64,000 nucleotides of DNA from Minisyncoccota bacterium (GTDB taxonomy: Bacteria > Patescibacteriota > Minisyncoccia > Phycocordibacterales > JACRKE01): assembly GCA_041660505.1 (NCBI GenBank), contig JBAZWG010000002.1, positions 868-64,867 of the forward strand, in the 5' to 3' direction. The notes under the pieces are model-generated. The model was not told the origin of the DNA and searched no databases. It worked only from the letters and a program-made list of their open reading frames with translations. This document shows positions 8,202 through 49,669 of this stretch, one piece after another. Position 1 is the stretch's first letter; the number at the start of each line of letters is the position of its first letter. The position numbers and the translations under genes are program-made.

Positions 8202-9164
8202 ATGATAGAACGCTTTACTGTAAAGATGCTTAGAGGATCGGCAGAGCAATTGAAATTCAAGTGTATTGTTGAGCCTAAGTTCGGCCATGTCGGTTATATA
8301 GAAAATAATACCGGCGAGAGATTCTTTTTTAAGTTATCAGCTCTGGATATAAATCCACTGGGCGCTTCGAAGATTGCGACTGATAAAGATTATACGCAAT
8401 TCCTGCTGGAGAAATTCGGTTATCCTGTGATATCCACAGAAACATTCTTCTCTGACGAATGGTGCAGAATAAATAATACCCAGAATAATTTAACTGCCGC
8501 ACTGGAATACGCAGAAAAGGTTGGTTATCCGCGCATAGTTAAACCCAACAGCAAGGGCCAGGGTAGGGGAGTGGCCAAAGTATATTCCGACGAAGAGCTC
8601 AAATTGGCACTTATTAATATTTTCGCAATAGATAATATCGCGCTTATACAGCCTTGCGTTCCGGGTACTGATTATCGCGTTGTAGTGTATAAAGATAAAG
8701 TTGTAGCGGCATATTCTCGCACGCCACTTATTATATTCGGCGACGGAATAAAAAGCATACGAGAGCTCTTGCCTGCATATGACATACCACTGCCAACAAT
8801 CGTATCGAGGATAAAGCGCGAGTATAATTTGACATTGGATTCTATCCCAAAAAATGGCGAGAGATTACAGCTTCTGGATAATGCCAACCTCTCGACCGGA
8901 GGCCAAGCCAGAGACATGACAGATACTATATGCGATAACGCGAAAGAGTTAGCCATAAAAGCGGTAAAAGATCTGGGGCTCAATCTGGCGGGCGTTGATA
9001 TTTTAACCACAGACGATATCGAGAAGAGCATGGTAGAATATGTAATTGTAGAGGTTAATTCGATGCCGGGCATGGAACATTATTCGGCACTAGGTCCGGA
9101 CCAGCTTGAGCGTACTCGCAGATTATACATAGATATAGTGCAAGATTATTTTAGCCATGATTAG
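8202..9164 (+). CDS. ATP-grasp ligase, D-Ala-D-Ala ligase (Ddl)-like with a short divergent N-terminal domain
   Basis: ASKIATDKDYTQFLLEKFGYPV resembles the Ddl ASALSMDKLRSKLL..GLPV segment. YPRIVKPNSKGQGRGV matches the ATP-grasp P-loop region. C-terminal YVIVEVNSMPGMEHYS resembles Ddl EANTSPGMTSHS. It lacks the Ddl N-terminal HGxxGEDG motif. It occupies the slot between mraY and ftsW usually held by murD. Confidence 0.65.
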   Translation: MIERFTVKMLRGSAEQLKFKCIVEPKFGHVGYIENNTGERFFFKLSALDINPLGASKIATDKDYTQFLLEKFGYPVISTETFFSDEWCRINNTQNNLTAALEYAEKVGYPRIVKPNSKGQGRGVAKVYSDEELKLALINIFAIDNIALIQPCVPGTDYRVVVYKDKVVAAYSRTPLIIFGDGIKSIRELLPAYDIPLPTIVSRIKREYNLTLDSIPKNGERLQLLDNANLSTGGQARDMTDTICDNAKELAIKAVKDLGLNLAGVDILTTDDIEKSMVEYVIVEVNSMPGMEHYSALGPDQLERTRRLYIDIVQDYFSHD

Positions 9165-10266: not shown

Positions 10267-11400
10267 ATGAAAATATTATTTACCGGAGGGGGAACGGGTG
10301 GACACTTTTATCCTATTATCGCTGTGGCGCAGGAACTTGCACGGCTATCGGAGGAAGAAAAATTCGTAGCACCTCAACTCTACTTCATGTCGAACGGCCC
10401 GTACAACAAACGAGCGTTATTCGACAACAGTATCGCCTACATTTTCGCGCCGGCTGGTAATCAAAGAATATATTTTTCACCAAAGAATATCTGGAATCTA
10501 ATAAAAACATTTTTTGGTATTTTGGGCGCCATCTGGAAAATATATCTCCTGTATCCGGATGTAATCTTCAGCAAGGGCGGGTACAGCAGTATCCCGGCGC
10601 TCGTAGCGGCGCGGGTATTCGGAATCCCGGTTGTTATCCACGAATCAGACAGTGTCCCTGGGCGTGTTAATCTCTGGGCGGGCAAATTCGCCGTCAAGAT
10701 TGCCGTATCGTACCCTGAGGCAGCCAAGTTCTTTCCACCGGACAAGACCGCGGTCACCGGCAACCCAATTCGTAGAGATTTCTTCTCTCCGGCATATTCC
10801 GGAGCGCATGAGTTCTTCGGCTTCGATCCGGCATTGCCGGTGATCTATGTGACGGGTGGCTCAAGCGGGTCTGCAAAAATGAACGACACGCTTGTCGACA
10901 CACTTCCACAGCTAATAGAGCATGCCCAAGTCATCATACAGACAGGCAAAGACTCTTACGAAGATATCTTGAAGAGAGTGACCTATATACTTGAAAAGAC
11001 GGGTAAACAGTCTCGCTGTAGGGTTTATGACTACGTAAATACATCGGCCTTGCGCATGATCGGCGGGAGTGCCGCAATAGTTATCTCACGAGCCGGATCT
11101 ACGATCTTCGAGATTGCCGCATGGGGCATACCGAGCATAATCATCCCGGGCGATGAGAGTGTCTTTCATAACGACCATCAACGCAAGAACGCTTACGCTT
11201 ACGCGCGCACCGGTGCATGTGTTGTCATAGAGGACAAGAATCTGCGTCCGAATATATTATATTCGGAAATTGAACGTATTTTGCAAAGTCAGGAGGTGCA
11301 AAAAAATATGCGTGAGGCGGCCAAAGCATTCGCGGACGATAAGAGCGCGCAACGTATAGCGCGAGAACTCTTAACGATTGCTTTGTCACATGAAATATAA
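10267..11400 (+). CDS. murG: UDP-GlcNAc:lipid I N-acetylglucosaminyltransferase (MurG)
   Basis: N-terminal MKILFTGGGTGGHFYPIIAVAQEL (GGGTGGH) signature; 377 aa. Confidence 0.9.
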   Translation: MKILFTGGGTGGHFYPIIAVAQELARLSEEEKFVAPQLYFMSNGPYNKRALFDNSIAYIFAPAGNQRIYFSPKNIWNLIKTFFGILGAIWKIYLLYPDVIFSKGGYSSIPALVAARVFGIPVVIHESDSVPGRVNLWAGKFAVKIAVSYPEAAKFFPPDKTAVTGNPIRRDFFSPAYSGAHEFFGFDPALPVIYVTGGSSGSAKMNDTLVDTLPQLIEHAQVIIQTGKDSYEDILKRVTYILEKTGKQSRCRVYDYVNTSALRMIGGSAAIVISRAGSTIFEIAAWGIPSIIIPGDESVFHNDHQRKNAYAYARTGACVVIEDKNLRPNILYSEIERILQSQEVQKNMREAAKAFADDKSAQRIARELLTIALSHEI

Positions 11401-27888: not shown

Positions 27889-28754
27889 GTGCGTTTTATA
27901 TTATTCGAGTCCTTTCGATCAACATAAACCCATTTAAGGGTATGCAGATTTACGGGACTCTTAAGATATATCGTTTCAAACGGAGCGTCCTCGGTCTTCT
28001 TGACCTGCTCAACCCTTGCGACAAGCGTGGGCTTTTCTGTAGGCAAAGTGGCCTCATCAAGCACGTTTATTTTTATATTCTTCGGTAAACTGGCAATGAA
28101 CGTGCCATCGCCGTCGCCTTGGATATTCACAGAAACATGCTCCTCCCCCAGAAATACTGAGGTTGTCACCTTGGCCGCCGAATAGAGTATTACTCTAGAG
28201 GATGATGTGTATACATCCGAGACAGAGCCGAGCACTATGTCTCCGAATGAATACACCTTGTCGCCACGAGAAATGCCGTCAGTACTGCCGACATCAATCA
28301 GCATAGACGCATAATATGAACGCTCCGGCGAAAGCAGAACAAGCGCCCCGATTGAATTTGCAGTCGGGGCACACAGAGTCCAGGGCGTGGTTGAAGAAAA
28401 AACCGTATCCTTTCTTCTTGATAATAAATTCTTGAGCTCATTATTCTCACTTGTCAGAACCGAAAGATACGATAGTCTCTCGCGAGAAAGTTCTATATCT
28501 GTTCTTAGCGCCTCATTTTCTGTCATGAGATTTTCTTTGCTTTTTAGGCCGACAGAAAGCGAGTCGACAGAGCGGACAATAAATTGCCCCGCATAAGTGA
28601 ACGGGCTTACTAAAAAAATTACAAACTGCGAAGCATAGGTTCGAGCCGGGGAAAAAATAAGGGCGAGGGCGAACGCAACGAGCGTAAACGTCCATGACTT
28701 ATACCAATGCGGCTGATTTCTATTCTGGAGGTAGGTCGTCTTCATCTTGGACAA
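27867..28754 (-). CDS. mreC: rod shape-determining protein MreC
   Basis: N-terminal TM, coiled-coil (ENEALRTDIELSRERLSYLSVLTSENNELKNLL), C-terminal beta-rich domain; operon position after mreB. Confidence 0.8.
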   Translation of the reverse strand: MSKMKTTYLQNRNQPHWYKSWTFTLVAFALALIFSPARTYASQFVIFLVSPFTYAGQFIVRSVDSLSVGLKSKENLMTENEALRTDIELSRERLSYLSVLTSENNELKNLLSRRKDTVFSSTTPWTLCAPTANSIGALVLLSPERSYYASMLIDVGSTDGISRGDKVYSFGDIVLGSVSDVYTSSSRVILYSAAKVTTSVFLGEEHVSVNIQGDGDGTFIASLPKNIKINVLDEATLPTEKPTLVARVEQVKKTEDAPFETIYLKSPVNLHTLKWVYVDRKDSNNIKRTCIPATR

Positions 28755-29784
28755 GTAAGTCTCTATAAAATTCGATGTCGTCTAAGATTATTCCGGTACC
28801 CCTTGCTACGGCCGTAAGCGGGTCATCGGAAATATATACTGGAATCTTCAAATCCTCCTCGAATACCTTGGTCAAGCCACGCAGAAGAGAGCCGCCGCCA
28901 GTGAGTAATATGCCTCTATGCATGATGTCCGAAATAATTTCTGGCGGAGTTAATTCCAACACTTCGCGTACGGCCGTCACCAGAAGACTGATTGATTGCC
29001 CGATTGCCTCGGTAATATCCTCGTTCGTCAGCATTATCTCGCGAGGGAGGCCAGTGACGAGGTCGCGACCCCGCACTATAGTTTCTAACGATTCGGATTT
29101 TGGATGGATAGAACCTATGGCAATCTTGACCTCCTCGGCGGTCTTCTCTCCGATGAGCATTTTGAACTCATCGCGCACATAGCCGACAATATCTTGATTA
29201 AGTTTGTCGCCCGCTATACGCAAGCTCTTGGCTTTTACGATGCCGCCGAGCGATATGACCGCTATGTCTGAGGTGCCGCCACCTATATCGATTATCATAT
29301 TACCTATCGGCTCGTAGACGGGCATACGGATACCGATAGCGGCGGCAATAGGTTCTTCTACTATATGCACTTCGCGCGCGCCGGCATTCTTAACAGCATC
29401 TCGTACGGCACGGCGTTCGACATTCGTAATACCGGACGGTACCCCCACGACCACTCGCGGACGGATTATCTTACGCGGAAACATTGCCTGTGTCTTTTTT
29501 ATGAAATAATGTATCATCTCCTCTGTTGCCTCGAAGTCGGAGATGACACCGTCAACCAGGGGCCTCACCGCAACGATGTGCTGGGGCGTGCGGCCGAGCA
29601 TCGAACGCGCATCACTGCCTATTGCCACAACCTGACCGGTCTTTTGGTTCAAGGCAACTACTGACGGCTCATTGATAATGATGCCGTTCCCACGAACAAA
29701 CACGAGCGTGTTGGCGGTACCCAGATCCATACCCACGTCGCTTGAGAATTTTGTGAGCAAACTTTCGAGAACTTTATTTTTCAT
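28720..29784 (-). CDS. mreB: rod shape-determining protein MreB
   Basis: DLGTANTLVF, EPIAAAIG and IDIGGGTSDIAVIS actin-fold motifs; 354 aa. Confidence 0.9.
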   Translation of the reverse strand: MKNKVLESLLTKFSSDVGMDLGTANTLVFVRGNGIIINEPSVVALNQKTGQVVAIGSDARSMLGRTPQHIVAVRPLVDGVISDFEATEEMIHYFIKKTQAMFPRKIIRPRVVVGVPSGITNVERRAVRDAVKNAGAREVHIVEEPIAAAIGIRMPVYEPIGNMIIDIGGGTSDIAVISLGGIVKAKSLRIAGDKLNQDIVGYVRDEFKMLIGEKTAEEVKIAIGSIHPKSESLETIVRGRDLVTGLPREIMLTNEDITEAIGQSISLLVTAVREVLELTPPEIISDIMHRGILLTGGGSLLRGLTKVFEEDLKIPVYISDDPLTAVARGTGIILDDIEFYRDLLVQDEDDLPPE

Positions 29785-31036: not shown

Positions 31037-31894
31037 TTAAGACTTTTTGTCAAAAAATTTGTTATCTCTTTTATTCTTAAGGTCAAGGTAATTTGATCTT
31101 GTTGAGACCTTTTGTCCAGTCTTGGCTTCGACAGCTCGACGAGCGACACCCGCAACCGAACCACCTTCTTTTGCATCTTTTTGTAGGGCTGGCAGTTCGC
31201 GAGAATCTTTGTTGCGAGAAATTTGAGTTGTTGTTGCTTCACCAAGCATCGTTAAAATAAGCTCGAGCTCGTTCATGTGGTCGCGTGGATTGTCTGGACT
31301 GTTCAAGCTCTTAAACTCTTTAATTTCTTTTGCTGTCATTTCGAATGCGCCCTGATATATCTCGTTAGTCAATATCGCAAAGTCAATCCCCTCCCTTGCA
31401 CCACGATCTTTCCACTCATCTGTTAGCGTATTCCGGATATTAATACCACGCATTCGTTTGGCGACCCAATCTTCTGAATAGCCTTTCCTGTCGTATATCT
31501 GTTTTGCTCTAACTATTGCCCGTTCCGGGTCTTGGATTTCCTCTATGCGCTCCTGACCGACCTTTGCAAGCCAGAGCTTGAAAGGCTCGGCTTTTGGGGA
31601 CGGTATGGATTGGATTATTCTAAACATACCCTGAAGATTTGTGCTGTCTGTCTCATATAACTTACCGTCTGCTGATGGTAATTTCAGTTGTACGATTTTT
31701 TCGTACAACTCGGAATATCCTTCTGAAATAAGCTTAATTTTAAGATCGCTCCAATATCGCCTCGGGTTTTGGCTCTCTGAAAGAATGCCTACGATATCAA
31801 TTATAGAGAAATACCACTGCTCATTATGCCATGTTCTGCGAACTTCCTTCTCTTCGAAAACAGCTGATTGTTTTACTTTTATGTCTTTTTTCAT
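31037..31894 (-). CDS. DinD-like protein (N-terminal Bro-N domain; DNA-damage-inducible protein D family), paralog 1
   Basis: Bro-N-like N-terminus (FEEKEVRRTWHNEQWYFSIIDIVGIL). The rest is collinear with E. coli DinD (LTDEW..GAREGIDFAILTNEIY..., ELELILTMLGE). Paralog of 59828..60586. Confidence 0.65.
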   Translation of the reverse strand: MKKDIKVKQSAVFEEKEVRRTWHNEQWYFSIIDIVGILSESQNPRRYWSDLKIKLISEGYSELYEKIVQLKLPSADGKLYETDSTNLQGMFRIIQSIPSPKAEPFKLWLAKVGQERIEEIQDPERAIVRAKQIYDRKGYSEDWVAKRMRGINIRNTLTDEWKDRGAREGIDFAILTNEIYQGAFEMTAKEIKEFKSLNSPDNPRDHMNELELILTMLGEATTTQISRNKDSRELPALQKDAKEGGSVAGVARRAVEAKTGQKVSTRSNYLDLKNKRDNKFFDKKS

Positions 31895-31900
31895 GCGATT

Positions 31901-32992
31901 TTAGAATAGCTTTACAATGTCGTGTACGGTTACGATTGCCATCAGTATTATGAGGATTGCGAAGCCTGCGGAATGGACCTTTTGAGTGAATTCCGGTTTT
32001 ATCGGCGAACCTTTAATTTTCTCTATTATAATGAATAGTATTCGGCCACCGTCCAAGGCCGGAATAGGTAGAATATTAAGAACTGCCAGATTAATGGAGA
32101 GCAACGCCATGAATGCCAGTATATAAGAGAAGCCAATGCCCGAGGCCATGCCGACCATCTTGAATATCCCAACCGGCCCACTGACCTGTCCGACCGTTGA
32201 TTCTTTTGCGAATATTCCTGTGGCGAAATAGTACAAACCTGTTATTGTTTCTTGCGCCAAGCGAACTGTCATGAGACCGCTCTCTCTTATCGCCGACATT
32301 GGAGGCAGATACGCCTCACCCATAATGGCAAAAGCGATACCTATTTTATATGTCTTGCCGTCTTCGGATTGCGGGGTAACAGTTACGAGTTCCGGCGCGG
32401 ATTTACCTGCGTGTTTGATATTGAGAATTATCGGCTTGCCGACGCTTTTCGCCACCAAATCGGAAATATCAACAGACCCGAGTACCGTATCTCCGCTCGA
32501 CAATCCGGCACGCGATGCCGGCGAATCATTTGCTACATAGTCTATTATTATCTGTCTATTGCGCAAATATTCCGGATTTATCGTACCTTCTACGGGTAAG
32601 AGAAGGCCTGTCTGGAGGCTTACGAATAACAAAAGCAACGCGAGCAATATATTCCCGATTACGCCAGCCGCGAGAATGATTATTTTTTTGTATGTCTGCT
32701 GGGTGCTGAAGCTGCGTGTTGAAAATTCGGAGGTCGGACCTCCGAAAGTCGTCGGAGGTCCGACCTCCGAATTTTCACCTTCTTCTCCCAATATTCTGAC
32801 GAATCCGCCGAGAGGCAACCAATTCAGCGAATAAAATGTTTCGCCGTATTGTTTGCCGAAAATTTTTGGCGGGAAGCCGAGCCCAAACTCATCGACTTGC
32901 ACACCGAAGAGCTTCGCGGCAATGAAGTGGCCGAACTCATGAGAAATAATAAGCGTCACGAGGACGATAATGAAGAGTATGGCTGTAAACAT
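31901..32992 (-). CDS. rseP: RIP zinc metalloprotease RseP (site-2 protease, M50 family)
   Basis: HEFGHF zinc motif in TM1, PDZ region, LPIPALDGG motif. It carries an in-frame palindromic repeat insertion (see repeat feature 32722..32775). Confidence 0.85.
   Translation of the reverse strand: MFTAILFIIVLVTLIISHEFGHFIAAKLFGVQVDEFGLGFPPKIFGKQYGETFYSLNWLPLGGFVRILGEEGENSEVGPPTTFGGPTSEFSTRSFSTQQTYKKIIILAAGVIGNILLALLLLFVSLQTGLLLPVEGTINPEYLRNRQIIIDYVANDSPASRAGLSSGDTVLGSVDISDLVAKSVGKPIILNIKHAGKSAPELVTVTPQSEDGKTYKIGIAFAIMGEAYLPPMSAIRESGLMTVRLAQETITGLYYFATGIFAKESTVGQVSGPVGIFKMVGMASGIGFSYILAFMALLSINLAVLNILPIPALDGGRILFIIIEKIKGSPIKPEFTQKVHSAGFAILIILMAIVTVHDIVKLF
32722..32775. repeat. tandem pair of 21-bp perfect palindromes flanked by AAAA/TTTT, lying in frame inside rseP
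   Basis: ttcggaggtc-g-gacctccgaa at 32726-32746 and gtcggaggtc-c-gacctccgaa at 32751-32771. Together they form a ~56-bp super-palindrome. They encode ...ENSEVGPPTTFGGPTSEFS... in a loop that is ~13 aa longer than in E. coli RseP. Confidence 0.7.
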
Positions 32993-33592: not shown

Positions 33593-33603
33593 ATTATATC
33601 ACA
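33593..33603 (-). promoter_or_regulatory. extended -10 promoter TGTGATATAAT for frr, overlapping the holB stop
   Basis: Minus-strand TGtGATATAAT is the same 11-mer as upstream of the 13581 gene. It is followed by a ~40-nt leader rich in CTTTCAACTT repeats. Confidence 0.4.
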
Positions 33604-34255
33604 CAGCTTGCCCGCCGACGAGGCGGGGCAGATGTAAGGCCAAACTCTCAAGAATAAGTTTAATGGCCGGCGCCGTGTCGTGTATATATTGCTTGCTCTT
33701 TTCGAGCAGTTCGAAGGCTGTTTTGTCTTTTTTCGCCAGTTCCGGGTTCTTTGCATAATATATTTCTAAAGCAGACAATATTGCACCGGCATCGTATTTA
33801 GTCCGCGCGTGCACTTCATCACTCTCATCGCGCACGTCAAAGAATGTCTTTTCTAGATATTTCAACCGTTCGATCGGCGTTTTCCTCAGAAACTTTTCTG
33901 CGTCGAAAACTTCTTCACTTGGAAGCTTAGCTTCCAAGTCTTCTAAAATATGTAATCTTGAGCGGAGGGTTGGTAATAAGTCATCCGGATACGGCGTAAT
34001 GATAACAAACTTAGTTCCGGGCATTGGCTCTTCTAGTGTCTTGAGTAGAGCATTCTGCGCCTCTCGTCCGAAGCCGTACGCGCCGATACTGAATGTCTGT
34101 ACATCCCCGTCTGCCACTGCCAAGCTTGCCCTGCGGTGCAATTCATGTGCGTCGGCGATATCAAATGTTACGTAAACTTCATCAGCAGAGACGGGCTCGC
34201 CTTGTATCAAGAATGCATGGTGAGTTGAAAGTTGAAAGTTGAAAGGGGTTCGCAT
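33599..34255 (-). CDS. holB: DNA polymerase III delta' subunit-like (AAA+ clamp-loader subunit without a P-loop)
   Basis: HHAFLIQGE (degenerate Walker A region, as in delta') and ALLKTLEEPMPGTKFVIITPYPDDLLPTLRSRLHI (sensor-1 / SRC-like motif). 218 aa. Codons 5-11 (FNFQLST) are encoded by an (AGTTGAA)3 heptamer repeat. Confidence 0.65.
   Translation of the reverse strand: MRTPFNFQLSTHHAFLIQGEPVSADEVYVTFDIADAHELHRRASLAVADGDVQTFSIGAYGFGREAQNALLKTLEEPMPGTKFVIITPYPDDLLPTLRSRLHILEDLEAKLPSEEVFDAEKFLRKTPIERLKYLEKTFFDVRDESDEVHARTKYDAGAILSALEIYYAKNPELAKKDKTAFELLEKSKQYIHDTAPAIKLILESLALHLPRLVGGQAV
34222..34244. repeat. (AGTTGAA)3 tandem heptamer repeat immediately downstream of the holB start codon
   Basis: gagttgaaagttgaaagttgaaagg. 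It is related to (AGTTGGG)4 at the fmt 5' end and to AAGTTGAAAG motifs at 33551-33590 and 48301-48360. Confidence 0.7.
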
Positions 34256-34293: not shown

Positions 34294-35319
34294 TTATCGC
34301 TTGCTTATAATACTGCGTTTATATGTATCAAGATGCTCGAGGGCGACACCAGTGCCTTTAGCCACACAAAAGAGTGCTTCGTCGGCAAGCTGAGCTTTGA
34401 CCCCCGTCTTGCGATAGACCAATTCCGGCAGATTGCGAAGCTGGGAGCTCCCGCCGGTCATGATTATGCCTTTATCAATAATATCAGAGGCGAGCTCCGG
34501 CGGTGTCTCTTGCAAAACATCTTTAATCGCCTTGACCATCTGACGAAGCTCGTTGTCAATCGCCTTCACAATCTCATTCGTCGCCATCTCGGCACTGCGC
34601 GGGAGACCGGTCAAGAAATCTCGACCCTTAATAATAGTGCGCAATTCGCTCTCCATCGGTACTGCAGAACCGATCTTCACCTTAATTTCTTCTGCGGTCT
34701 TGTCGCCTATCGCCAGATTAAACGTGCGTTTGATATATTCCGTAATAGCGACATCCATTTTATTACCGGCACACTTGACGGATGTAGAGGCCACGATACT
34801 GCCAAGGGATATCACCGCTACGTCTGTCGTACCGCCGCCGATGTCGACGACCATGTACCCGCATGGCTCATGAATCGGGATGCCGGCGCCAATCGCCGCG
34901 AGTATCGGCTCCTTGACCACGTAAGCACTGCGCGCACCAGCCTTGATGGCTGCCTCGATGACAGCCCGGCGCTCGGTCGAGGTAATACCGGCAGGTACGG
35001 ATATCATAACGTCGGGCTTAAAAAAGTTCCACTTGCCAAGAGCCTTCTGGATATAATACCGTAACATCGCCTCGGTCACGCGATAGTCGGCGATGACGCC
35101 GTCCTGCATCGGTTTGTAGACAAGTATACCGTCCGGCGCCTTGCCCACCATCTCTTTGGCCGCCGCGCCGACGGCCAAGACTTTATTATCTATCTCCGAA
35201 ACAGCCACAACTGAAGGCTCGTTTAGAACAATCCCCCGCCCAGGTACGAAGACGAGCGTGTTGGCGGTACCCAGATCAATACCAAGCTTGCGAGTAAATC
35301 GAGGGAATTCAAACTTCAT
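34294..35319 (-). CDS. mreB: MreB/Mbl actin-like protein, second paralog
   Basis: Start set at MKFEFPRFTRKLGIDLGTANTLVFV (ATG 35319). TGcTATAGT sits 6 nt upstream on the minus strand. Full MreB motif set. The ORF-track N-terminal extension runs into the RAYT element and is rejected. Confidence 0.85.
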   Translation of the reverse strand: MKFEFPRFTRKLGIDLGTANTLVFVPGRGIVLNEPSVVAVSEIDNKVLAVGAAAKEMVGKAPDGILVYKPMQDGVIADYRVTEAMLRYYIQKALGKWNFFKPDVMISVPAGITSTERRAVIEAAIKAGARSAYVVKEPILAAIGAGIPIHEPCGYMVVDIGGGTTDVAVISLGSIVASTSVKCAGNKMDVAITEYIKRTFNLAIGDKTAEEIKVKIGSAVPMESELRTIIKGRDFLTGLPRSAEMATNEIVKAIDNELRQMVKAIKDVLQETPPELASDIIDKGIIMTGGSSQLRNLPELVYRKTGVKAQLADEALFCVAKGTGVALEHLDTYKRSIISKR

Positions 35320-35381
35320 TACCCTACTATAGCAAACACTTTTTACTGTCCAAAGCTTAGCTTTGATAATTTCGATATGTG

Positions 35382-35390
35382 TGGTATAAT
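35382..35390 (+). promoter_or_regulatory. extended -10 TGgTATAAT, 6 nt upstream of the RAYT ATG (leaderless)
   Basis: gtggtataat-ttaaca-ATG. Confidence 0.45.
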
Positions 35391-35396
35391 TTAACA

Positions 35397-36077
35397 ATGC
35401 GAATTATTGAATTTTGTGCGAATGAATATTACCACGTCTTTAACAGAGGCAATAATAAACAAGTAATCTTTCGCGATGATAGCGACCGTTTCCGATTCCT
35501 GTTCGCACTGCTTTTTTTTCAGGCTCCAATCAGCTATGACCAGATTGGCAGATATATAGTGTTTTTAAAAAGGCACAGGACGGACATTAGCCAGAATGAT
35601 TCATTAAAGGATTTAGCGGAGCACGTACTGGGCAAACGCTCTATAGAATTAATCAATTTTTGTCTTATGCCAAACCATTTCCACCTTGCCGTTAAGCCAA
35701 TGAAGGATAATGCAGTGTCGCTATATTTACATAAAGTATTAACTTCGTATACAAAATATTGGAATAAAAAATATAAGGCGACGGGACACCTGTTCGAAGG
35801 ATCATTCAAAGCTGTCCGTGTTGCTGATAATGACCAGTTTTTATATCTATCGACCTATATACACAGAAACCCCGCTGAATTATCGACGTGGATTGGTCGC
35901 GAGCATGAATATCCGTGGTCGAGTCTGCAAGACTACCTTGGTGTTAATCGTTGGGGAAAACTGCTTGCGACCGAAAATATTTTAGAGCAATTTGACTCGA
36001 TTGAGGAATATCGGGCTTATGTTAACGATAGCACAGCAAAAACCGGCGATGACGACATCGAGTTTGTCCAAAGCTAA
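35397..36077 (+). CDS. REP-associated tyrosine transposase (RAYT), HUH/Y1 family
   Basis: YHVFNRGNN...IF.DD.DR.RFL.LL, HUH motif LMPNHFHL, GHLFEGSFK, catalytic-Tyr region YIHRNPAELS, and the C-terminal YPWSS motif. Start at ATG 35397 (ORF-track GTG 35379 rejected). Confidence 0.7.
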   Translation: MRIIEFCANEYYHVFNRGNNKQVIFRDDSDRFRFLFALLFFQAPISYDQIGRYIVFLKRHRTDISQNDSLKDLAEHVLGKRSIELINFCLMPNHFHLAVKPMKDNAVSLYLHKVLTSYTKYWNKKYKATGHLFEGSFKAVRVADNDQFLYLSTYIHRNPAELSTWIGREHEYPWSSLQDYLGVNRWGKLLATENILEQFDSIEEYRAYVNDSTAKTGDDDIEFVQS

Positions 36078-36094
36078 GCTTTGGACATTGGACC

Positions 36095-38326
36095 CTACTT
36101 CCCGTACATATATAATGAGTAAATCTCATTGGCCGACAACTCGCGGTTATAAATACGCACGTCATCGATTCCGCCCTTCCACGGTTCAGCCGGCGCGCCA
36201 TAATCACCAATATACATATTTACTCCGCCATCGTTATATACTCCGCCAAGATTCTTGTTATCGCTACCCACAAGTCTACCATCTATATATAAATACTGTG
36301 CGGAGTTTGTTTTTACACAGACCATATGATGCCATTTACCGTCCTTATACACATTGCTTACTGCCGGGGACGCAATGGTCGCTGCAACTCTTAGACTGCA
36401 ATACATTTGAGTACCGCCACTATCCCCCATCAATACTGCACTACCAGCAGAGTATTTTCCCAGAATAAAATAAGCGGTGGCGCCAGGGACTTGCCCTCTA
36501 TTGAACCAAGCGGAATATGTCCAACTATTCGCATTGGTTGGCCCGAAGTTGTTGCCCAGATTTACAGTATTATTAGCGCCATTCTTTGGGAAATACAACC
36601 CTTGTCCAATTTTCCCTGCAATAATACTTGTCCCTGTCACTGTCCCATTTTTCCCATTTCCACTTTTGTCTAACATTACACCGGTAGTCCTGTCCACAGC
36701 ATCAAACGTCCACCAGCCGACGAGACCATTTGTGGTGCTTTGAGCCGAGACTAGCGCTGGACTGGCTGTGACCTTCGCGCCACCGAGTGTATATAATGAG
36801 TAAACTTCATTGGCCGACAAGGCGCGGTCGTAGACACGCATGTCGTCGGCTTGCCCTGAAAAAATACCGTCTGACTCGGCGTTACCAAATACTCCAAAAT
36901 AGTAAACACTGTTTGTTATATTAGGGGTTACCGTGGTCGGAGTACCGGATATCGCCTGTAGTACACCATTCACATATATCTGCGTGGTTGTATTTGCCGC
37001 GCCGGGAGATTTAACAATGGTCACTAAATACCATTTATTTGCCGTTAATGCACCTGCGGCTGTTGCGACAGAATTGCCGGAAGCGTATTCGACCGAAACA
37101 GCCCCTGCTCCGCGCAAATTAAAGAAGGTGCCTATAGCCGCACCAGCACCACCGTTACGATCACCCGTAAAAAGACCTGCGCCGGATGTTGTTGTATCTC
37201 TCAATTTCACCCACTGCGATAAGGTTATAGACGCATTACCAGAGATGCCAGAATTATTAGCACCAAGTAGATAACATTTCTGCCCATTTGTGGTCGCTGT
37301 TGGCGTAAGCGATATTCCTCGACTTATCTTCGCGGTTACAAATTGCGGCGTGCAATTCGTCCCGCTCTGTGTTGTAAACATATGACCATTACCAGTCTTA
37401 TCTATTGTATAAGTACTCCCTGAATCTGGGGTATCGAAAGTCCACCAGCCGACAAGGCCATTCGTGGTACTCTGCGCGGAAACTTTCGTCGGGCTTGCCG
37501 TAATCTTACTTGTACCGAGCTGGTACAGAGCTTTAATCTCGCTCGCAGACAATGCACGACTATAAATGCGCACGTCGTCGATAGAGCCGTTAAAGTTATA
37601 TCCTCGTGCGTTAACTCCGCCTGGTCCCCATGGGCCGTCTGCAGCAATATCCAATTCTCCATCCGGCGCATTTTGCGAACCGGTTATCGTTGTCGGGGTC
37701 TGGGCAATTCCGTCGATGTATAAGGTTATTGTTGTACCGTTTATTGTTTCGACCGCATGATGCCATTGATTATCTCCATAGGCACCGGCGCTCGTAGAAA
37801 AAAAGTCTGTACCGTTATAGTACTCCGCAGATACTGTATTATTCGTATTCATCAATAGACCCCAAAGATAGCGGTTGGGAGCATTATTAAGCGTATCTTT
37901 TCGGAGAATCGACATTTCACCTGCCGCATTCCCGCTCGTTTTAAACCAAGCCGAAATCGTAAGCGTAGAACCCAGCCGCAGGCTTGCGCTATCGGGCACG
38001 GCGACGTATTGCGATGCACTAATTGCGCTCCATGAAGCATTAGACGACAGAGCTTGGCCGATCTTGCCCTGCACTTTACTCATGCTTGTTAATGTCCCAT
38101 GATTTGCATATAAGCTTTTATCCCTCACTTGCGAACCTGTTACGTATCCTGAATCAAACGTCCACCAGCCAACAAGGCCATTCGTCGTGCCCATCGCGCC
38201 CAGAGCCTGCGCGCTCGAAACTGCAGACGCCTCTGCCTTGCCGGCCAAAAATAGCGCAGGCAACAAAAGCAAGAGCGCGAGGAACCTAGTTAAAAGTTTA
38301 ATGCTTACGAGTGTCACAATTTTCAA
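36095..38326 (-). CDS. secreted protein with four LamG-like (concanavalin A-like lectin/glucanase, Laminin_G_3-type) domains
   Basis: Signal peptide. Four repeats of TNGLVGWWTFD ... DDVRIY(S/D/N)RALSA(S/N)EI..LY. 743 aa. Starts 18 bp downstream of the giant gene stop, so likely the same operon. Confidence 0.8.
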   Translation of the reverse strand: MKIVTLVSIKLLTRFLALLLLLPALFLAGKAEASAVSSAQALGAMGTTNGLVGWWTFDSGYVTGSQVRDKSLYANHGTLTSMSKVQGKIGQALSSNASWSAISASQYVAVPDSASLRLGSTLTISAWFKTSGNAAGEMSILRKDTLNNAPNRYLWGLLMNTNNTVSAEYYNGTDFFSTSAGAYGDNQWHHAVETINGTTITLYIDGIAQTPTTITGSQNAPDGELDIAADGPWGPGGVNARGYNFNGSIDDVRIYSRALSASEIKALYQLGTSKITASPTKVSAQSTTNGLVGWWTFDTPDSGSTYTIDKTGNGHMFTTQSGTNCTPQFVTAKISRGISLTPTATTNGQKCYLLGANNSGISGNASITLSQWVKLRDTTTSGAGLFTGDRNGGAGAAIGTFFNLRGAGAVSVEYASGNSVATAAGALTANKWYLVTIVKSPGAANTTTQIYVNGVLQAISGTPTTVTPNITNSVYYFGVFGNAESDGIFSGQADDMRVYDRALSANEVYSLYTLGGAKVTASPALVSAQSTTNGLVGWWTFDAVDRTTGVMLDKSGNGKNGTVTGTSIIAGKIGQGLYFPKNGANNTVNLGNNFGPTNANSWTYSAWFNRGQVPGATAYFILGKYSAGSAVLMGDSGGTQMYCSLRVAATIASPAVSNVYKDGKWHHMVCVKTNSAQYLYIDGRLVGSDNKNLGGVYNDGGVNMYIGDYGAPAEPWKGGIDDVRIYNRELSANEIYSLYMYGK

Positions 38327-47986: not shown

Positions 47987-49669
47987 ATGCAGGTCATCAC
48001 ACTTATCCCCATCGTCCGTGGTATCGGCAAAGACGAGCTTACCTACTTCTCTACCCTGCCTGTCAAGGTCGGCGACATTGCCACTGTCACCATCAACTCG
48101 CGCGAAGTGCGCGGGATAGTCACGGACGTACTCGACGCGAGAACGGCAAAGAATTCTGTGAAGCGCGGAGACTTCGCGCTAAAGAAGGTTCTGAAGATCG
48201 AGCCGGGATTTATTGCACCATCTGTCATTTCTGTAGCAAAAGAAACTTCTGATTATTTCGCTTGTTCAGTGAGTCAGGTTCTCGGCTCGATGTACCCCAA
48301 AAACGTACTAAACGAAGTTGAAAGTAAAAAGTTGCCGTGCCTGCCGGCAGGCAGGAAAGTTGAAAGGAATCACCCCTCTCCTTCGGGGAGGGGCCGGGGT
48401 GGGGTTGCAATCGAAGGAACCCGGCAAGATCGTTTTGTTTGGATTCAAAAAAACTTAATCAAGAGGAATATGAAAGTCTTATATATTTCACCATCGAATC
48501 ATGAACTAGCAAAAGCTAAAAAAGTTTTCAATGATACTGAAATTATTTGCGTATCGCCGGAATATGGCTTTGTATGGCTACCTTATGTCGATACGATAAT
48601 TTTAGATAACGAAAGTGGCGCTGGCTATCATGATAATTCACGGGCACAAATAGATTTTAAAAAAGTGTACGAATTTCATGCGCTGGAAAATAAACAGCAA
48701 ATAATTTTCGCTGATAACGTGCTTGATCTCAAATATTTCGCAAATCCAAAAAGTGGCCAACATCGGGTGTTGACCACTTTTCCAAAAGTTATGGTGGTAA
48801 AAAAGGAAAAAACTGCTCTGCATAATTCTTGGCTCGTGAGTAAAGAAGCAGTGGGATTGACGGAAAAAATACTTGCAAAAAATTCTAGAATGTTCTTCTT
48901 CGCTCCACGTAAAAGTATCGCGAGTATCACCGTATGTGGTGATTGCGGCGAAACCGTGCAGTGTGAGACTTGCAAACGGCCACTTATGCTCGCACGCAAG
49001 AATGGTAAACGAATATTCATCTGCCAAAAATGCTCTCAAATCACGCAAGTAGATATATCATGTGCAAGCTGTAATAGCTGGAAGTTGAGACCCCTGGGTG
49101 TGACAGTTGACTCTGTCGCTGATGAGCTGGAGCGATTATTTCCCAAGGCGACCGTCTTGCGAGTGTCGGGCGACATCACAAAGACCAAGACCCAACTTGC
49201 AAAAATCATCAAACAATTTTATGCCACATCCGGCGCGCTGCTCGTCGGCACCGAGCTTGCGCTCCCCTATCTCGAACAGCTAATTTCTTATTCTGTAATC
49301 TCCAGTATCGATTCGTTTTTATCAGGCAGAAGTTTGTCAGGTACGGACAAAGCCGCGCGAATTATCTTTGAGGTTGCAACCCTTGCCCATGAAAAAGTTT
49401 TAGTAGAAACAAGCGACCCACACCAGCAATTTTTTCAAGATATTTCTGATGGCGGAGGTTTAACCTCCGCTATGCTAAAAACATATCGCGAACATGAACT
49501 TGCAGAAAGAAAAAAGTTTAACTATCCGCCATACAGTATTATCATAAAAATAAATTCAGAAATATTTTTTATAAATAAAGAGAAGTGGCCGGACGCAGAA
49601 CTCGTCGCGAGAATTCGCGCGTTGCCAAAGGGCTCAACCTACACCATAGACGCAAACAGTGTCGTGTAG
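47987..49669 (+). CDS. primosomal protein N' (PriA)-like, with degenerate helicase ATPase motifs
   Basis: Start set at ATG 47987 (TACAAT 6 nt upstream; ORF-track TTG 47948 rejected). N-terminal 3'-DNA-binding domain. PriA Cys-rich zinc-binding region CGDCGETVQCETCKRPL...CQKCSQ...CASCNS is collinear with the E. coli PriA CHDCG..CPRCD..CHHCD..CPSCG region. Walker A GxTGSGKT is absent (YISPSNHELAKAK instead), and DEEH is replaced by DNES (IILDNESGAGY). It carries an in-frame REP-like element at 48301-48360. Confidence 0.6.
   Translation: MQVITLIPIVRGIGKDELTYFSTLPVKVGDIATVTINSREVRGIVTDVLDARTAKNSVKRGDFALKKVLKIEPGFIAPSVISVAKETSDYFACSVSQVLGSMYPKNVLNEVESKKLPCLPAGRKVERNHPSPSGRGRGGVAIEGTRQDRFVWIQKNLIKRNMKVLYISPSNHELAKAKKVFNDTEIICVSPEYGFVWLPYVDTIILDNESGAGYHDNSRAQIDFKKVYEFHALENKQQIIFADNVLDLKYFANPKSGQHRVLTTFPKVMVVKKEKTALHNSWLVSKEAVGLTEKILAKNSRMFFFAPRKSIASITVCGDCGETVQCETCKRPLMLARKNGKRIFICQKCSQITQVDISCASCNSWKLRPLGVTVDSVADELERLFPKATVLRVSGDITKTKTQLAKIIKQFYATSGALLVGTELALPYLEQLISYSVISSIDSFLSGRSLSGTDKAARIIFEVATLAHEKVLVETSDPHQQFFQDISDGGGLTSAMLKTYREHELAERKKFNYPPYSIIIKINSEIFFINKEKWPDAELVARIRALPKGSTYTIDANSVV
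48301..48360 (+). repeat. REP/MITE-like element in frame inside the priA-like gene. It is AAGTTGAAAG-flanked, with a 14-bp perfect palindrome gcctgccggcaggc.
   Basis: gaagttgaaagtaaaaagttgccgtgcctgccggcaggcaggaaagttgaaagg encodes ...NEVESKKLPCLPAGRKVERN.... A second GC hairpin (cccctctcc-ttcg-gggagggg-like) follows at 48372-48395. It is near-identical to the minus-strand copy at 51549-51583. Confidence 0.7.

Follow-up and report, generated by a model that had tools for sequence, protein, structure and literature searches.

Architecture of the locus

A 64,000-nucleotide stretch of contig JBAZWG010000002.1 from a Minisyncoccota bacterium (the window) carries a single gene for a homologue of the HUH/Y1 transposases, placed divergently to the gene mreB2 and convergently to the gene of a Laminin_G_3 (LamG) protein. 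The gene has its own predicted promoter, and we consider it probable that it is a class-2 Y1 gene of the type represented by the REP (repetitive extragenic palindrome)-associated tyrosine transposases (RAYT/TnpA_REP), present in single copy with a cognate 23-nt palindrome, TGT-N8-N-N8'-ACA, on each side (Table 1). An earlier note on this DNA had described a RAYT unit inserted immediately upstream of a second mreB, and two mreB genes were indeed found in the window. The sequence of a second assembly (L001) was 100% identical to the window over 4.7 kb.

The right palindrome folds, as DNA, into a hairpin with a predicted energy of -10.0 kcal/mol (z = -4.1), and none of 200 shuffled sequences was equally stable. 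Its TAA loop (36075-36077) doubles as the stop codon of the Y1 gene: the 5' arm and loop together encode EFVQS, the five C-terminal residues, and the stop. Between the end of this palindrome and the LamG stop codon lie 7 nt. The left copy reads GATAA instead of GGACA at its 3' foot and retains a stem of 6 bp (-4.3 kcal/mol, z = -1.5). The description of the pair as matching, bracketing hairpins therefore holds in full for the right one, including the stop codon in its loop, whereas the left one qualifies as a copy but not as an intact hairpin. The two have 19 nt in common: aligned in opposite orientation these match perfectly, and aligned in the same orientation they differ by one mismatch in the loop. 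Across the window, the cassette palindrome was matched twice (0.04 matches expected), with no further copies. An Rfam search of positions 34900-36500 returned nothing at E <= 1.

The Y1 promoter, consisting of TTGATA, a 16-nt spacer, and TATAAT with an upstream TG, agrees with 11 of 12 consensus positions. Its -35 hexamer (35363-35368) is part of the decayed 3' arm of the left palindrome. A gap of 6 nt separates the -10 hexamer (35385-35390) from the ATG, which is the geometry of a leaderless mRNA. As judged from the sequence, the Y1 promoter takes its -35 region from the left palindrome. On the mreB strand, the 5' arm of the same palindrome reads TTGGACA, 15 to 16 nt upstream of the TG-extended -10 element of mreB2, TGCTATAGT, which is found on the minus strand 6 nt before the mreB2 ATG. 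The insertion appears to have replaced the upstream promoter context of mreB2, with a palindrome arm now at the -35 position. Both divergent promoters named in the earlier note were thus recovered. Its placement of the start of the unit 3 nt from the mreB2 ATG was not, since the unit begins at the left palindrome, approximately 28 nt away.

Table 1. Coordinates of the cassette, its flanks, and other features of the window
Feature	Position	Strand	Comment
Whole inserted cassette, hairpin to hairpin, 741 bp	35347..36087	+	Left palindrome, promoter, Y1 gene, right palindrome
Left palindrome copy, TGTCCAAAGCTTAGCTTTGATAA	35347..35369	.	5' arm and loop intact, 3' foot decayed
Predicted Y1 gene promoter	35363..35390	+	-35 TTGATA, 16-nt spacer, TG-extended -10 TATAAT
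Y1 HUH single-stranded DNA endonuclease/transposase homologue, 226 aa	35397..36077	+	PF01797, fold, motifs
Right palindrome, TGTCCAAAGCT-A-AGCTTTGGACA	36065..36087	.	Perfect 11+1+11 hairpin
Cassette palindrome, sequence form for copy counts			TGTCCAAAGCTWAGCTTTGGACA
Predicted LamG-mreB2 empty-site junction, cassette removed at the slash			...GGGAAGTAGGGTCCAA / CAGTAAAAAGTGTTTGCTATAGT...
Flank outside cassette: native mreB2 start and promoter, TTTGCTATAGTAGGGTAATG	35317..35337	-	Conserved in cassette-free relatives
Flank: left ACCCTACT	35321-35328	
Flank: right ACCCTACT	36092..36099	.	Overlaps LamG last codon and stop (AAG TAG, minus strand)
mreB2	34294-35319	-	Divergent from Y1 ORF (open reading frame)
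LamG protein (Laminin_G_3), 743 aa	36095-38326	-	Convergent with Y1 ORF
First mreB, beside mreC	28720-29784		One of the two mreB genes in the window
Diverged hairpin relative (possible third), ACTTGGAAGCTTAGCTTCCAAGT	33917..33939	.	In holB-like gene; membership uncertain
holB-like gene	33599-34255	-	
rseP	31901-32992	-	
58-nt perfect hairpin in rseP, CGGAGGTC-G-GACCTCCG	32720-32777		26-bp stem, two inverted copies
CGGAGGTnnnACCTCCG (CGGAGGT...ACCTCCG family)	32728-32744, 32753-32769, 49453-49469		Three occurrences
Perfect palindrome, 10-bp stem, TCCGAATATATTATATTCGGA	11247-11267		
Perfect palindrome, 10-bp stem, AGTTGTACGA-TTTTT-TCGTACAACT	31686-31710		

The Y1 protein

The motifs on which the earlier note had based its identification were all present in the protein: MPNHFHL (HUH = H94-F95-H96), YIHRNP (containing Y154), and YPWSS (WSS at 174-176). 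The Pfam family PF01797 (Y1_Tnp), whose profile the earlier note had proposed as a check, was matched over residues 54-158 with 41.1 bits, compared to a gathering threshold of 23 (E = 2.3e-10). An NCBI entry annotated as 'MAG: transposase' is 100% identical to the protein. Within the family, Y154, H156, and N158 do not vary, and P159 is shared by at least 90% of members, giving a YxxxNP tyrosine motif.

An AlphaFold2 model built from a 38-sequence alignment reached a pLDDT of 90.6. The top solved structure retrieved with it by Foldseek was 4er8_A, the E. coli RAYT-REP complex (E = 1.4e-5; target-normalized TM 0.65), followed by the TnpA proteins of ISDra2, IS608, and IS200 at approximately 1e-3, with a probability of 1.0 for each of 4er8, 2xm3, and 2vjv. 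A sequence search of the PDB returned ISDra2 TnpA alone (E ~1e-3). The model also contains two extra helices, predicted for residues 28-60 between beta1 and the core, which accounts for the Pfam alignment starting only at residue 54. Among NCBIfam models, NF047646 (equivalog 'REP-associated tyrosine transposase') was the best for all 38 family members scanned (best E-value, 3.6e-11, well under the cut-off score). The IS200 model NF033573 was matched by 2 of the 38 relatives, at E = 2e-3, and not by the window protein. As modeled, the protein has the HUH/Y1 fold with intact catalytic residues, and it is closer to RAYT than to IS200 with respect to the best hidden Markov model (HMM), the best-matching fold (4ER8), and the tyrosine motif.

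Conservation and covariation of the flanking palindromes

At all 13 homologous loci above 40% identity (the window, L002 to L007, L131, L132, L134, L135, L147, and L148), the Y1 gene lies between two copies of a palindrome that is specific to its lineage, and palindromes also bracket the gene at L008, which is 32% identical. Ten of the loci contain the 23-nt unit TGT-N8-N-N8'-ACA, for example, TGTGCGAAGCTTAGCTTCGCACA, TGTGCAACATCCGATGTTGCACA, and TGTTAGACACCGAGTGTTTAACA; versions of 35 to 37 nt occur at three. When 20 copies were aligned, 91.8% of cells were paired, compared with 31 to 41% in controls with slid partners. Compensatory double changes were found in 7 of 11 pairs, and the observed covariation was reached by none of 500 shuffles. 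The TGT/ACA feet and one A:T pair were unvarying, the left copy of the window being the only one of the 20 that breaks two of the three foot pairs. Identity of the proteins correlated with identity of the hairpin arms (Spearman 0.38), a value reached by 24 of 2,000 permutations. Gene and palindrome pair thus appear, by sequence comparison, to travel together across the family, with palindromes that keep their pairing and co-vary with the protein.

A count of TGT-N17-ACA palindromes with no more than two inner mismatches yielded 27 in 307 kb of fetched loci, whereas 0.4 were expected, and none in 37 kb of related loci without a Y1 gene. Counted among the 27 are flanking copies as well as the solo, doublet, and internal copies described below. 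The hairpins belong to the gene, as they are absent from four gene-free relatives and present around all 13 homologues. The two flanking copies have the same orientation in L002, L005, L007, L132, L134, and L135; L006 and L131, and possibly the window, carry them as inverted repeats. The hairpin-to-ATG distance was 15 to 49 nt at all 12 homologous loci tabulated. By eye, most of these spacers contain a -10-like hexamer 3 to 9 nt before the ATG and no Shine-Dalgarno sequence; L003 was unclear. Relative to the stop codon, the start of the right copy ranges from -13 to +66 nt, and overlap with the stop was seen in the window only. The stop codon in the loop, to which the earlier note had drawn attention, is consequently a local accident of tight packing and not a feature of the family.

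In 6 of the 13 loci, solo or doublet copies of the palindrome were found 0.6 to 9 kb from the gene, and the syntenic loci L134 and L148 carry a copy at the same intergenic site. The family scatters its hairpin, at low copy number. One of these copies, in L132 (6650-6797), is a REPIN-like inverted doublet, TGTTCGAAGCT-W-AGCTTCGAACA, located just after secA, at a distance of 3.3 kb from the Y1 gene. The enclosed 102 nt include an 18-codon ORF (MRSKEELHHFNCKECGKW), and one compensated base pair distinguishes the doublet from the gene-flanking copies. L131 contains two TGT...ACA palindromes of another sequence class (TGTTYGATTTACGAAATCRAACA; 1057-1079 and 2158-2180), 8 to 9 kb from the Y1 gene, which bracket a region with an IS110-type Transposase_20 fragment.

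Most of the Y1 homologues also harbor an internal, in-frame hairpin at nucleotide +170 (codons 57-64), encoding F-V-K-H-R-V-F-N-I. It is perfect, and the same as the flanking hairpin of its own lineage, in L131 (10171-10193) and L135 (10219-10241). In other homologues it is degenerate (L003, 6144-6166, is a further listed site), and in the window it is unrecognizable: this Y1 copy has lost its internal hairpin.

A metagenome scan for TGTCCAAAGCTWAGCTTTG returned at least 120 matching stretches, 117 of them representing one conserved human-gut locus and 3 being other single matches. Among the matches listed, none matched the window by blastn, and the median GC content of the loci was 58%; the scan was uninformative on copy number. 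The 19-mer TGTCCAAAGCTTAGCTTTG sits in a conserved locus (...AAATCCTGTCCAAAGCTTAGCTTTGTGCCGCTGTTGAGCAG...) of more than 100 human-gut metagenome contigs that is unrelated to the window.

Insertion site and relatives without the cassette

The closest MreB2 relatives, with 87 to 91% identity, were fetched (L142, L143, L144, and L145). Gene order in L144 is as in the window (giant protein, LamG, mreB2, holB-like, frr, rseP, proS, mreB1, and mreC), and its LamG-mreB2 spacer of 40 nt contains neither a Y1 gene nor a hairpin, which provides the comparison with an insertion-free relative that the earlier note had envisaged. Neither Y1 gene nor hairpins were found upstream of mreB2 in L142, L143, and L145. 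The spacer kept outside the palindromes in the window measures 7 + 17 = 24 nt, compared with 26 nt from the LamG stop to TATAGT in L144, and from this comparison the inserted unit is the interval 35347-36087. The cassette from hairpin to hairpin is, as far as these sequences tell, the unit of an insertion or deletion bounded by the palindromes. Since these relatives are distant, at the genus or family level (holB-like, 41 to 73% identity; LamG, 30%), the event must be old.

In all four cassette-free relatives, the sequence upstream of mreB2 is TGnTATAGT followed, after 6 to 8 nt, by the ATG; the promoter and leader sequence in L144 is TATAGTAGGGT, given also as tggTATAGTAGGGTcctATG. Together with the window (35317-35334, minus strand), five genomes lack a Shine-Dalgarno sequence ahead of mreB2 and have this TG-extended -10 element at a distance of 6 to 8 nt from the ATG, which suggests that the mreB2 mRNA is leaderless. 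The same leaderless-type geometry was observed for the Y1 genes of the family.

The 8-mer ACCCTACT was indeed found just outside both ends of the unit, as the earlier note had reported, and a third occurrence lies elsewhere in the window. A flank repeat of this length was reached by 16 of 500 shuffles. The left 8-mer reads AGTAGGGT on the mreB strand, with ATAGCA adjacent, and ATAGCA plus ACCCTACT constitute the conserved native mreB2 promoter, TGCTATAGTAGGGT, of cassette-free genomes, so that it is no element end. The right one, at the end of LamG, is probably a coincidence and no element end either. The 8-mer therefore stands as a sequence feature but not as an element terminus. Two candidate structures built on it were rejected because of the native promoter: an IS608-like cleavage after ACCCTACT, at approximately 19 nt to the left of the hairpin, the element terminating on the right in the same 8-mer, and an 8-bp target-site duplication. 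Y1 enzymes, moreover, make no target duplications. No significant outer direct repeat was found at 11 other loci. In the Nomurabacteria homologue L004, ACCCTACT followed by CCGTATGTCCAAA occurs approximately 25 nt left of the left hairpin, near 1279-1286; by rough estimate the chance of this is about 2%.

The genomic contexts of the homologues vary and include recR/rplU, obg/gatB, a glycosyltransferase cluster, and pilus genes. An identical protein was found on 7 contigs and another on 3, each in the same context wherever it was shown. L134 and L148 share synteny and hairpin, with 85% protein identity. The window has one Y1 copy, as do 12 of the 13 loci, and a second fragment is seen in L009. 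Taken together, these sequences are consistent with a cassette that relocates rarely and is otherwise inherited vertically.

Distribution of the family

With a search space of 5.8 billion clusters, a word-indexed search yielded 542 matches, nearly all of 215 to 230 aa and 45 to 54% identical to the window protein. Their named sources were Patescibacteria lineages or unclassified 'bacterium', and nearly all were singleton clusters. The closest non-self protein was 52% identical. An exhaustive profile search returned 976 50%-identity clusters at E <= 1e-30. Among 38 homologues, 29 residues are invariant, including HUH and Tyr154, and all 29 are present in the window protein. It belongs to the most divergent pair of members: of 86 highly conserved columns it departs from the consensus at 11, compared with a median of 4, and these changes are mainly conservative and leave the catalytic residues untouched. 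Relatives on viral contigs were searched for, and none were found.

Several database proteins (P0005, P0062, P0085, P0119, and P0042; also L135 10001-10048) begin with the extensions 'LDTECLT', 'NTECLT', or 'ETELCT'. These are the translated left hairpin, so their start codons have been called too far upstream.

A literature search returned nothing that links RAYT or Y1 transposases to Patescibacteria, and members from this phylum are not mentioned in the accessible portions of PMC6006769, PMC5581495, and PMC3733652. The subfamily of RAYT-like class-2 Y1 cassettes, which is Patescibacteria-wide, is apparently undescribed.

Other palindromes in the window

The window contains eight spans of perfect palindrome with a stem of at least 9 bp, compared with zero to four in shuffles. 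The core AAGCTWAGCTT occurs three times (0.05 expected), two of the occurrences being the cassette flanks. The third is ACTTGGAAGCTTAGCTTCCAAGT, which has the 11+1+11 geometry and the 11-nt core AAGCTTAGCTT, lacks the TGT/ACA feet, and lies in frame in the holB-like gene, encoding DLEAKLPS. At the orthologous holB-like site of L142 (7232-7267), TTGGAGGTTGAACCTCCAA and GGAGGTTCAACCTCC were found, with the same outer stem and an exchanged core.

The CGGAGGT...ACCTCCG family also has three occurrences (0.03 expected); it has no TGT/ACA feet and is unrelated in sequence to the cassette hairpins. The long rseP hairpin is in frame in a variable linker, where it encodes GENSEVGPPTTFGGPTSEFS. In L142, the closest relative, on a contig without a Y1 gene, the rseP linker contains a doublet of a different palindrome, GAAGTCAGACTTC (about 8360-8400), and GGAGGTT-N-AACCTCC occurs twice in the holB-like gene; no palindrome doublet was found in the rseP linker of L144 and L145. 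We rejected the idea that the palindromes in rseP and the holB-like gene are discrete insertions, as in the protein alignments the orthologues have linkers that vary but are similarly long. Two further perfect palindromes have 10-bp stems (Table 1).

The earlier note had considered the palindromes elsewhere in the window to be plausible products of a mechanism related to that of the RAYT unit. The holB-like palindrome, with its shared core and geometry, may be linked mechanistically to the Y1 enzyme. For the CGGAGGT family, which includes the copies in rseP and at 49453, such a link is unsupported.

Comparison with known systems

The arrangement resembles the REPtron of RAYT/TnpA_REP (E. coli rayT/yafM, 4ER8; PMC2817692, PMC3333891, and PMC3479197), in which a single-copy Y1 gene (one copy in 64 kb here) likewise lies between cognate palindromes. 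Both have the YxxxNP motif, 4ER8 is the best fold and the RAYT model the best HMM, hairpin and protein co-evolve, and inheritance appears to be vertical within clades. The palindromes here are near-perfect over 23 nt, whereas the E. coli enzyme needs a stem mismatch, and a block of approximately 30 to 35 residues, modeled as two helices between beta1 and the core, is additional.

According to Quentin 2018 (PMC6006769), YxxxNP denotes class 2 (RAYT-like) of TnpA_Y1 and YxxxQ denotes IS200. The closest motif signature is that of TnpA_Y1 subclass 2.1 (PMC6006769), which corresponds to Group 1 of Bertels (PMC5581495) and to TIRYT/TIRtron (Di Nocera 2013, PMC3733652). Its motifs as given in Table 1 of PMC6006769, with which alone the comparison was made and not with the authors' HMMs, are NH[YF]H, FQ, Y[IV]HxNP, and an SS tail; here we find NHFH, FQ (FE in the window), YIHRNP, and WSS. 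Further similarities to subclass 2.1 as described there are the length (approximately 225 to 238 aa, compared with 215 to 230 aa in the family), a low copy number, and few flanking repeats genome-wide. In contrast, subclass 2.1 is reported without REP-like hairpins and with GGGGWSAS terminal inverted repeats instead of TGT...ACA hairpins; it has a C-terminal helix-turn-helix (HTH) domain (Bac_DnaA_C, HTH_23, or HTH_28), whereas a Pfam scan of the window protein detected no HTH or Bac_DnaA_C domain in its tail; and its listed features include no insertion between beta1 and alphaA. More generally, the low-copy Groups 1 and 4 of Bertels are resembled more than the REP-rich Groups 2 and 3. The internal hairpin at codons 57-64 recalls subclass 2.4, for which Quentin 2018 describes an in-frame REP inside tnpA_REP. 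It differs in being N-terminal to HUH rather than between HUH and Y and in being family-wide rather than sporadic.

The IS200/IS605 elements (IS200, IS608, and ISDra2; 2VJV and 2XM3) share with the cassette the fold and the HUH/Y chemistry, a short unit with subterminal hairpins at both ends, the lack of a target duplication, and a seamless presence or absence. Features of their own that were not seen here are YxxxQ, a length of about 150 aa, dimers, near-identical multiple copies, distinct left- and right-end hairpins, and guide tetranucleotides.

The kind of system, a class-2 Y1 enzyme with cognate flanking palindromes, is hence already known. What is new is a combination: a subfamily with extra N-terminal helices, TGT-N17-ACA hairpins without a GTAG foot, low copy number, a conserved in-frame internal hairpin, and insertion or deletion of the whole cassette.

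Interpretation of the cassette

The steps by which a RAYT-type enzyme of this kind may act can be proposed by analogy with the chemistry of IS608, ISDra2, and TnpA_REP (PMC3333891 and PMC3479197). The enzyme would recognize the palindrome as a hairpin in single-stranded DNA, for example, in the lagging-strand template. Cleavage close to the hairpin foot would involve Tyr154 and an HUH-bound metal and pass through a 5'-phosphotyrosine intermediate, and the strands would be rejoined. Over evolutionary time, this could have moved the cassette as a unit and occasionally seeded solo or doublet hairpins. Bound to the left copy, the enzyme might repress its own promoter. At the present locus, the cassette is most likely a resident that is vertically inherited and poorly mobile or immobile, with a gene that would still be under selection: the left hairpin has lost its otherwise almost invariant 3' foot and no further copies occur in 64 kb. 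From its sequence, the cassette is probably immobile now.

Several observations speak against assignment to the RAYT/TnpA_REP type. The only NCBIfam match of the window protein, to NF047646, scores 37.9 bits against a cut-off of 80, and the family profile did not retrieve 4ER8, the E. coli RAYT, from the PDB sequences, so that the relationship to it rests on the fold comparison. E. coli TnpA_REP requires a GT[AG]G foot (PMC3333891), and the hairpins described here have TGT...ACA with an A/T-rich 5' flank without GTAG. The 64 kb hold no high-copy, dispersed population of REPs or bacterial interspersed mosaic elements and no extra copies. Being symmetric, the palindrome might just as well serve as a double-stranded operator bound by a dimeric protein. 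L144 is a distant relative (LamG, 30%; holB-like, 41% identity), and loss in its lineage rather than insertion in the window is a formally possible alternative. The RAYT label of the earlier note is accordingly apt insofar as the protein is nearer to RAYT than to IS200, but with less than half of the cut-off score and another hairpin foot, and 'REP-associated' was not borne out in the window.

The unit could instead be an ordinary autonomous insertion sequence (IS) of the IS200/IS605 family that encodes TnpA only and actively transposes by single-strand peel-and-paste, its subterminal hairpins being the ends. A hairpin-bounded unit with its own promoter that is present or absent as a whole would agree with this, as would the different genomic contexts among lineages and the hairpins that form direct repeats on one strand at several loci, as in IS608. 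We nevertheless regard this as improbable. The protein has YxxxNP instead of YxxxQ and 226 aa instead of about 150 (Quentin 2018, PMC6006769), and it does not match the IS200 model of NCBIfam. Its nearest relative is only 52% identical, and nearly every cluster is a singleton with one context. The 64 kb contain no second copy, there is no tnpB, and viral contigs yielded no relative; the presumed cleavage site ACCCTACT belongs to the native mreB2 promoter, and the left hairpin has decayed.

At the other extreme, the gene might be a fully domesticated host gene that moves no DNA, with the left palindrome as an operator over the -35 region and the right one as an mRNA-end or terminator hairpin shared with LamG. 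A single copy, catalytic residues that are invariant in a phylum-wide family of about 1,000 50%-identity clusters, and synteny kept within a clade are in accordance with such a role. So is the position of the palindromes: the left one overlaps the -35 element in the window and, in homologues, abuts the -10 element or lies up to approximately 34 nt upstream, and the right one is within -13 to +66 nt of the stop at every locus measured. On the other hand, solo or doublet copies 0.6 to 9 kb away in 6 of 13 loci and in-frame genic copies would be left unexplained, the cassette is an insertion or deletion with the palindromes as its bounds, and its context varies widely between lineages. The right hairpin is followed by no T run, and a terminator scan found no intrinsic terminator there. 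Domestication without any movement of DNA therefore seems unlikely to us. A further reading, in which the hairpins belong natively to mreB2 and LamG as leader or terminator structures and flank an unrelated transposase by chance, is refuted, even if the right one does lie between convergent genes and the left one between divergent promoters. Such a hairpin is missing upstream of mreB2 in four gene-free relatives, which is the opposite of the refuting condition named in the earlier note, the two hairpins are copies of each other, and every one of the 13 homologues has its own matching pair.

Within the favored assignment to a RAYT/TnpA_REP-type gene with cognate palindromes, a further proposal can be made tentatively, and we hold it to be possible rather than likely: that the family is a 'minimal REPtron,' still acting as an autonomous unit, in which a class-2 enzyme moves its own cassette and seeds a few solo hairpins, including at in-frame genic sites. 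Codons 57-64 of the Y1 gene itself would be one such site, and the holB-like palindrome with the same core might be another.

Implications

RAYT-type enzymes are the best-known domesticated bacterial transposases. Their origin from IS200-like elements, and their role where there is no REP population, are unsettled. With about 1,000 clusters, it offers a compact system of one gene, two to three 23-nt hairpins, and few extra copies, in which cassette gain and loss, hairpin-protein co-evolution, and promoter overlap can be read from sequence. The locus itself yields a concrete candidate substrate, TGTCCAAAGCTAAGCTTTGGACA. For annotation, it should be noted that gene callers often carry these ORFs through the left hairpin, which yields spurious 'LDTECLT' N termini. 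For the host genome, the cassette has remodeled the sequence that precedes the second mreB. If the 'minimal REPtron' proposal were true, the family would represent a still-existing link between insertion sequences of the IS200 type and domesticated REP/RAYT systems, and it would supply in-frame palindromes to essential genes in reduced genomes.

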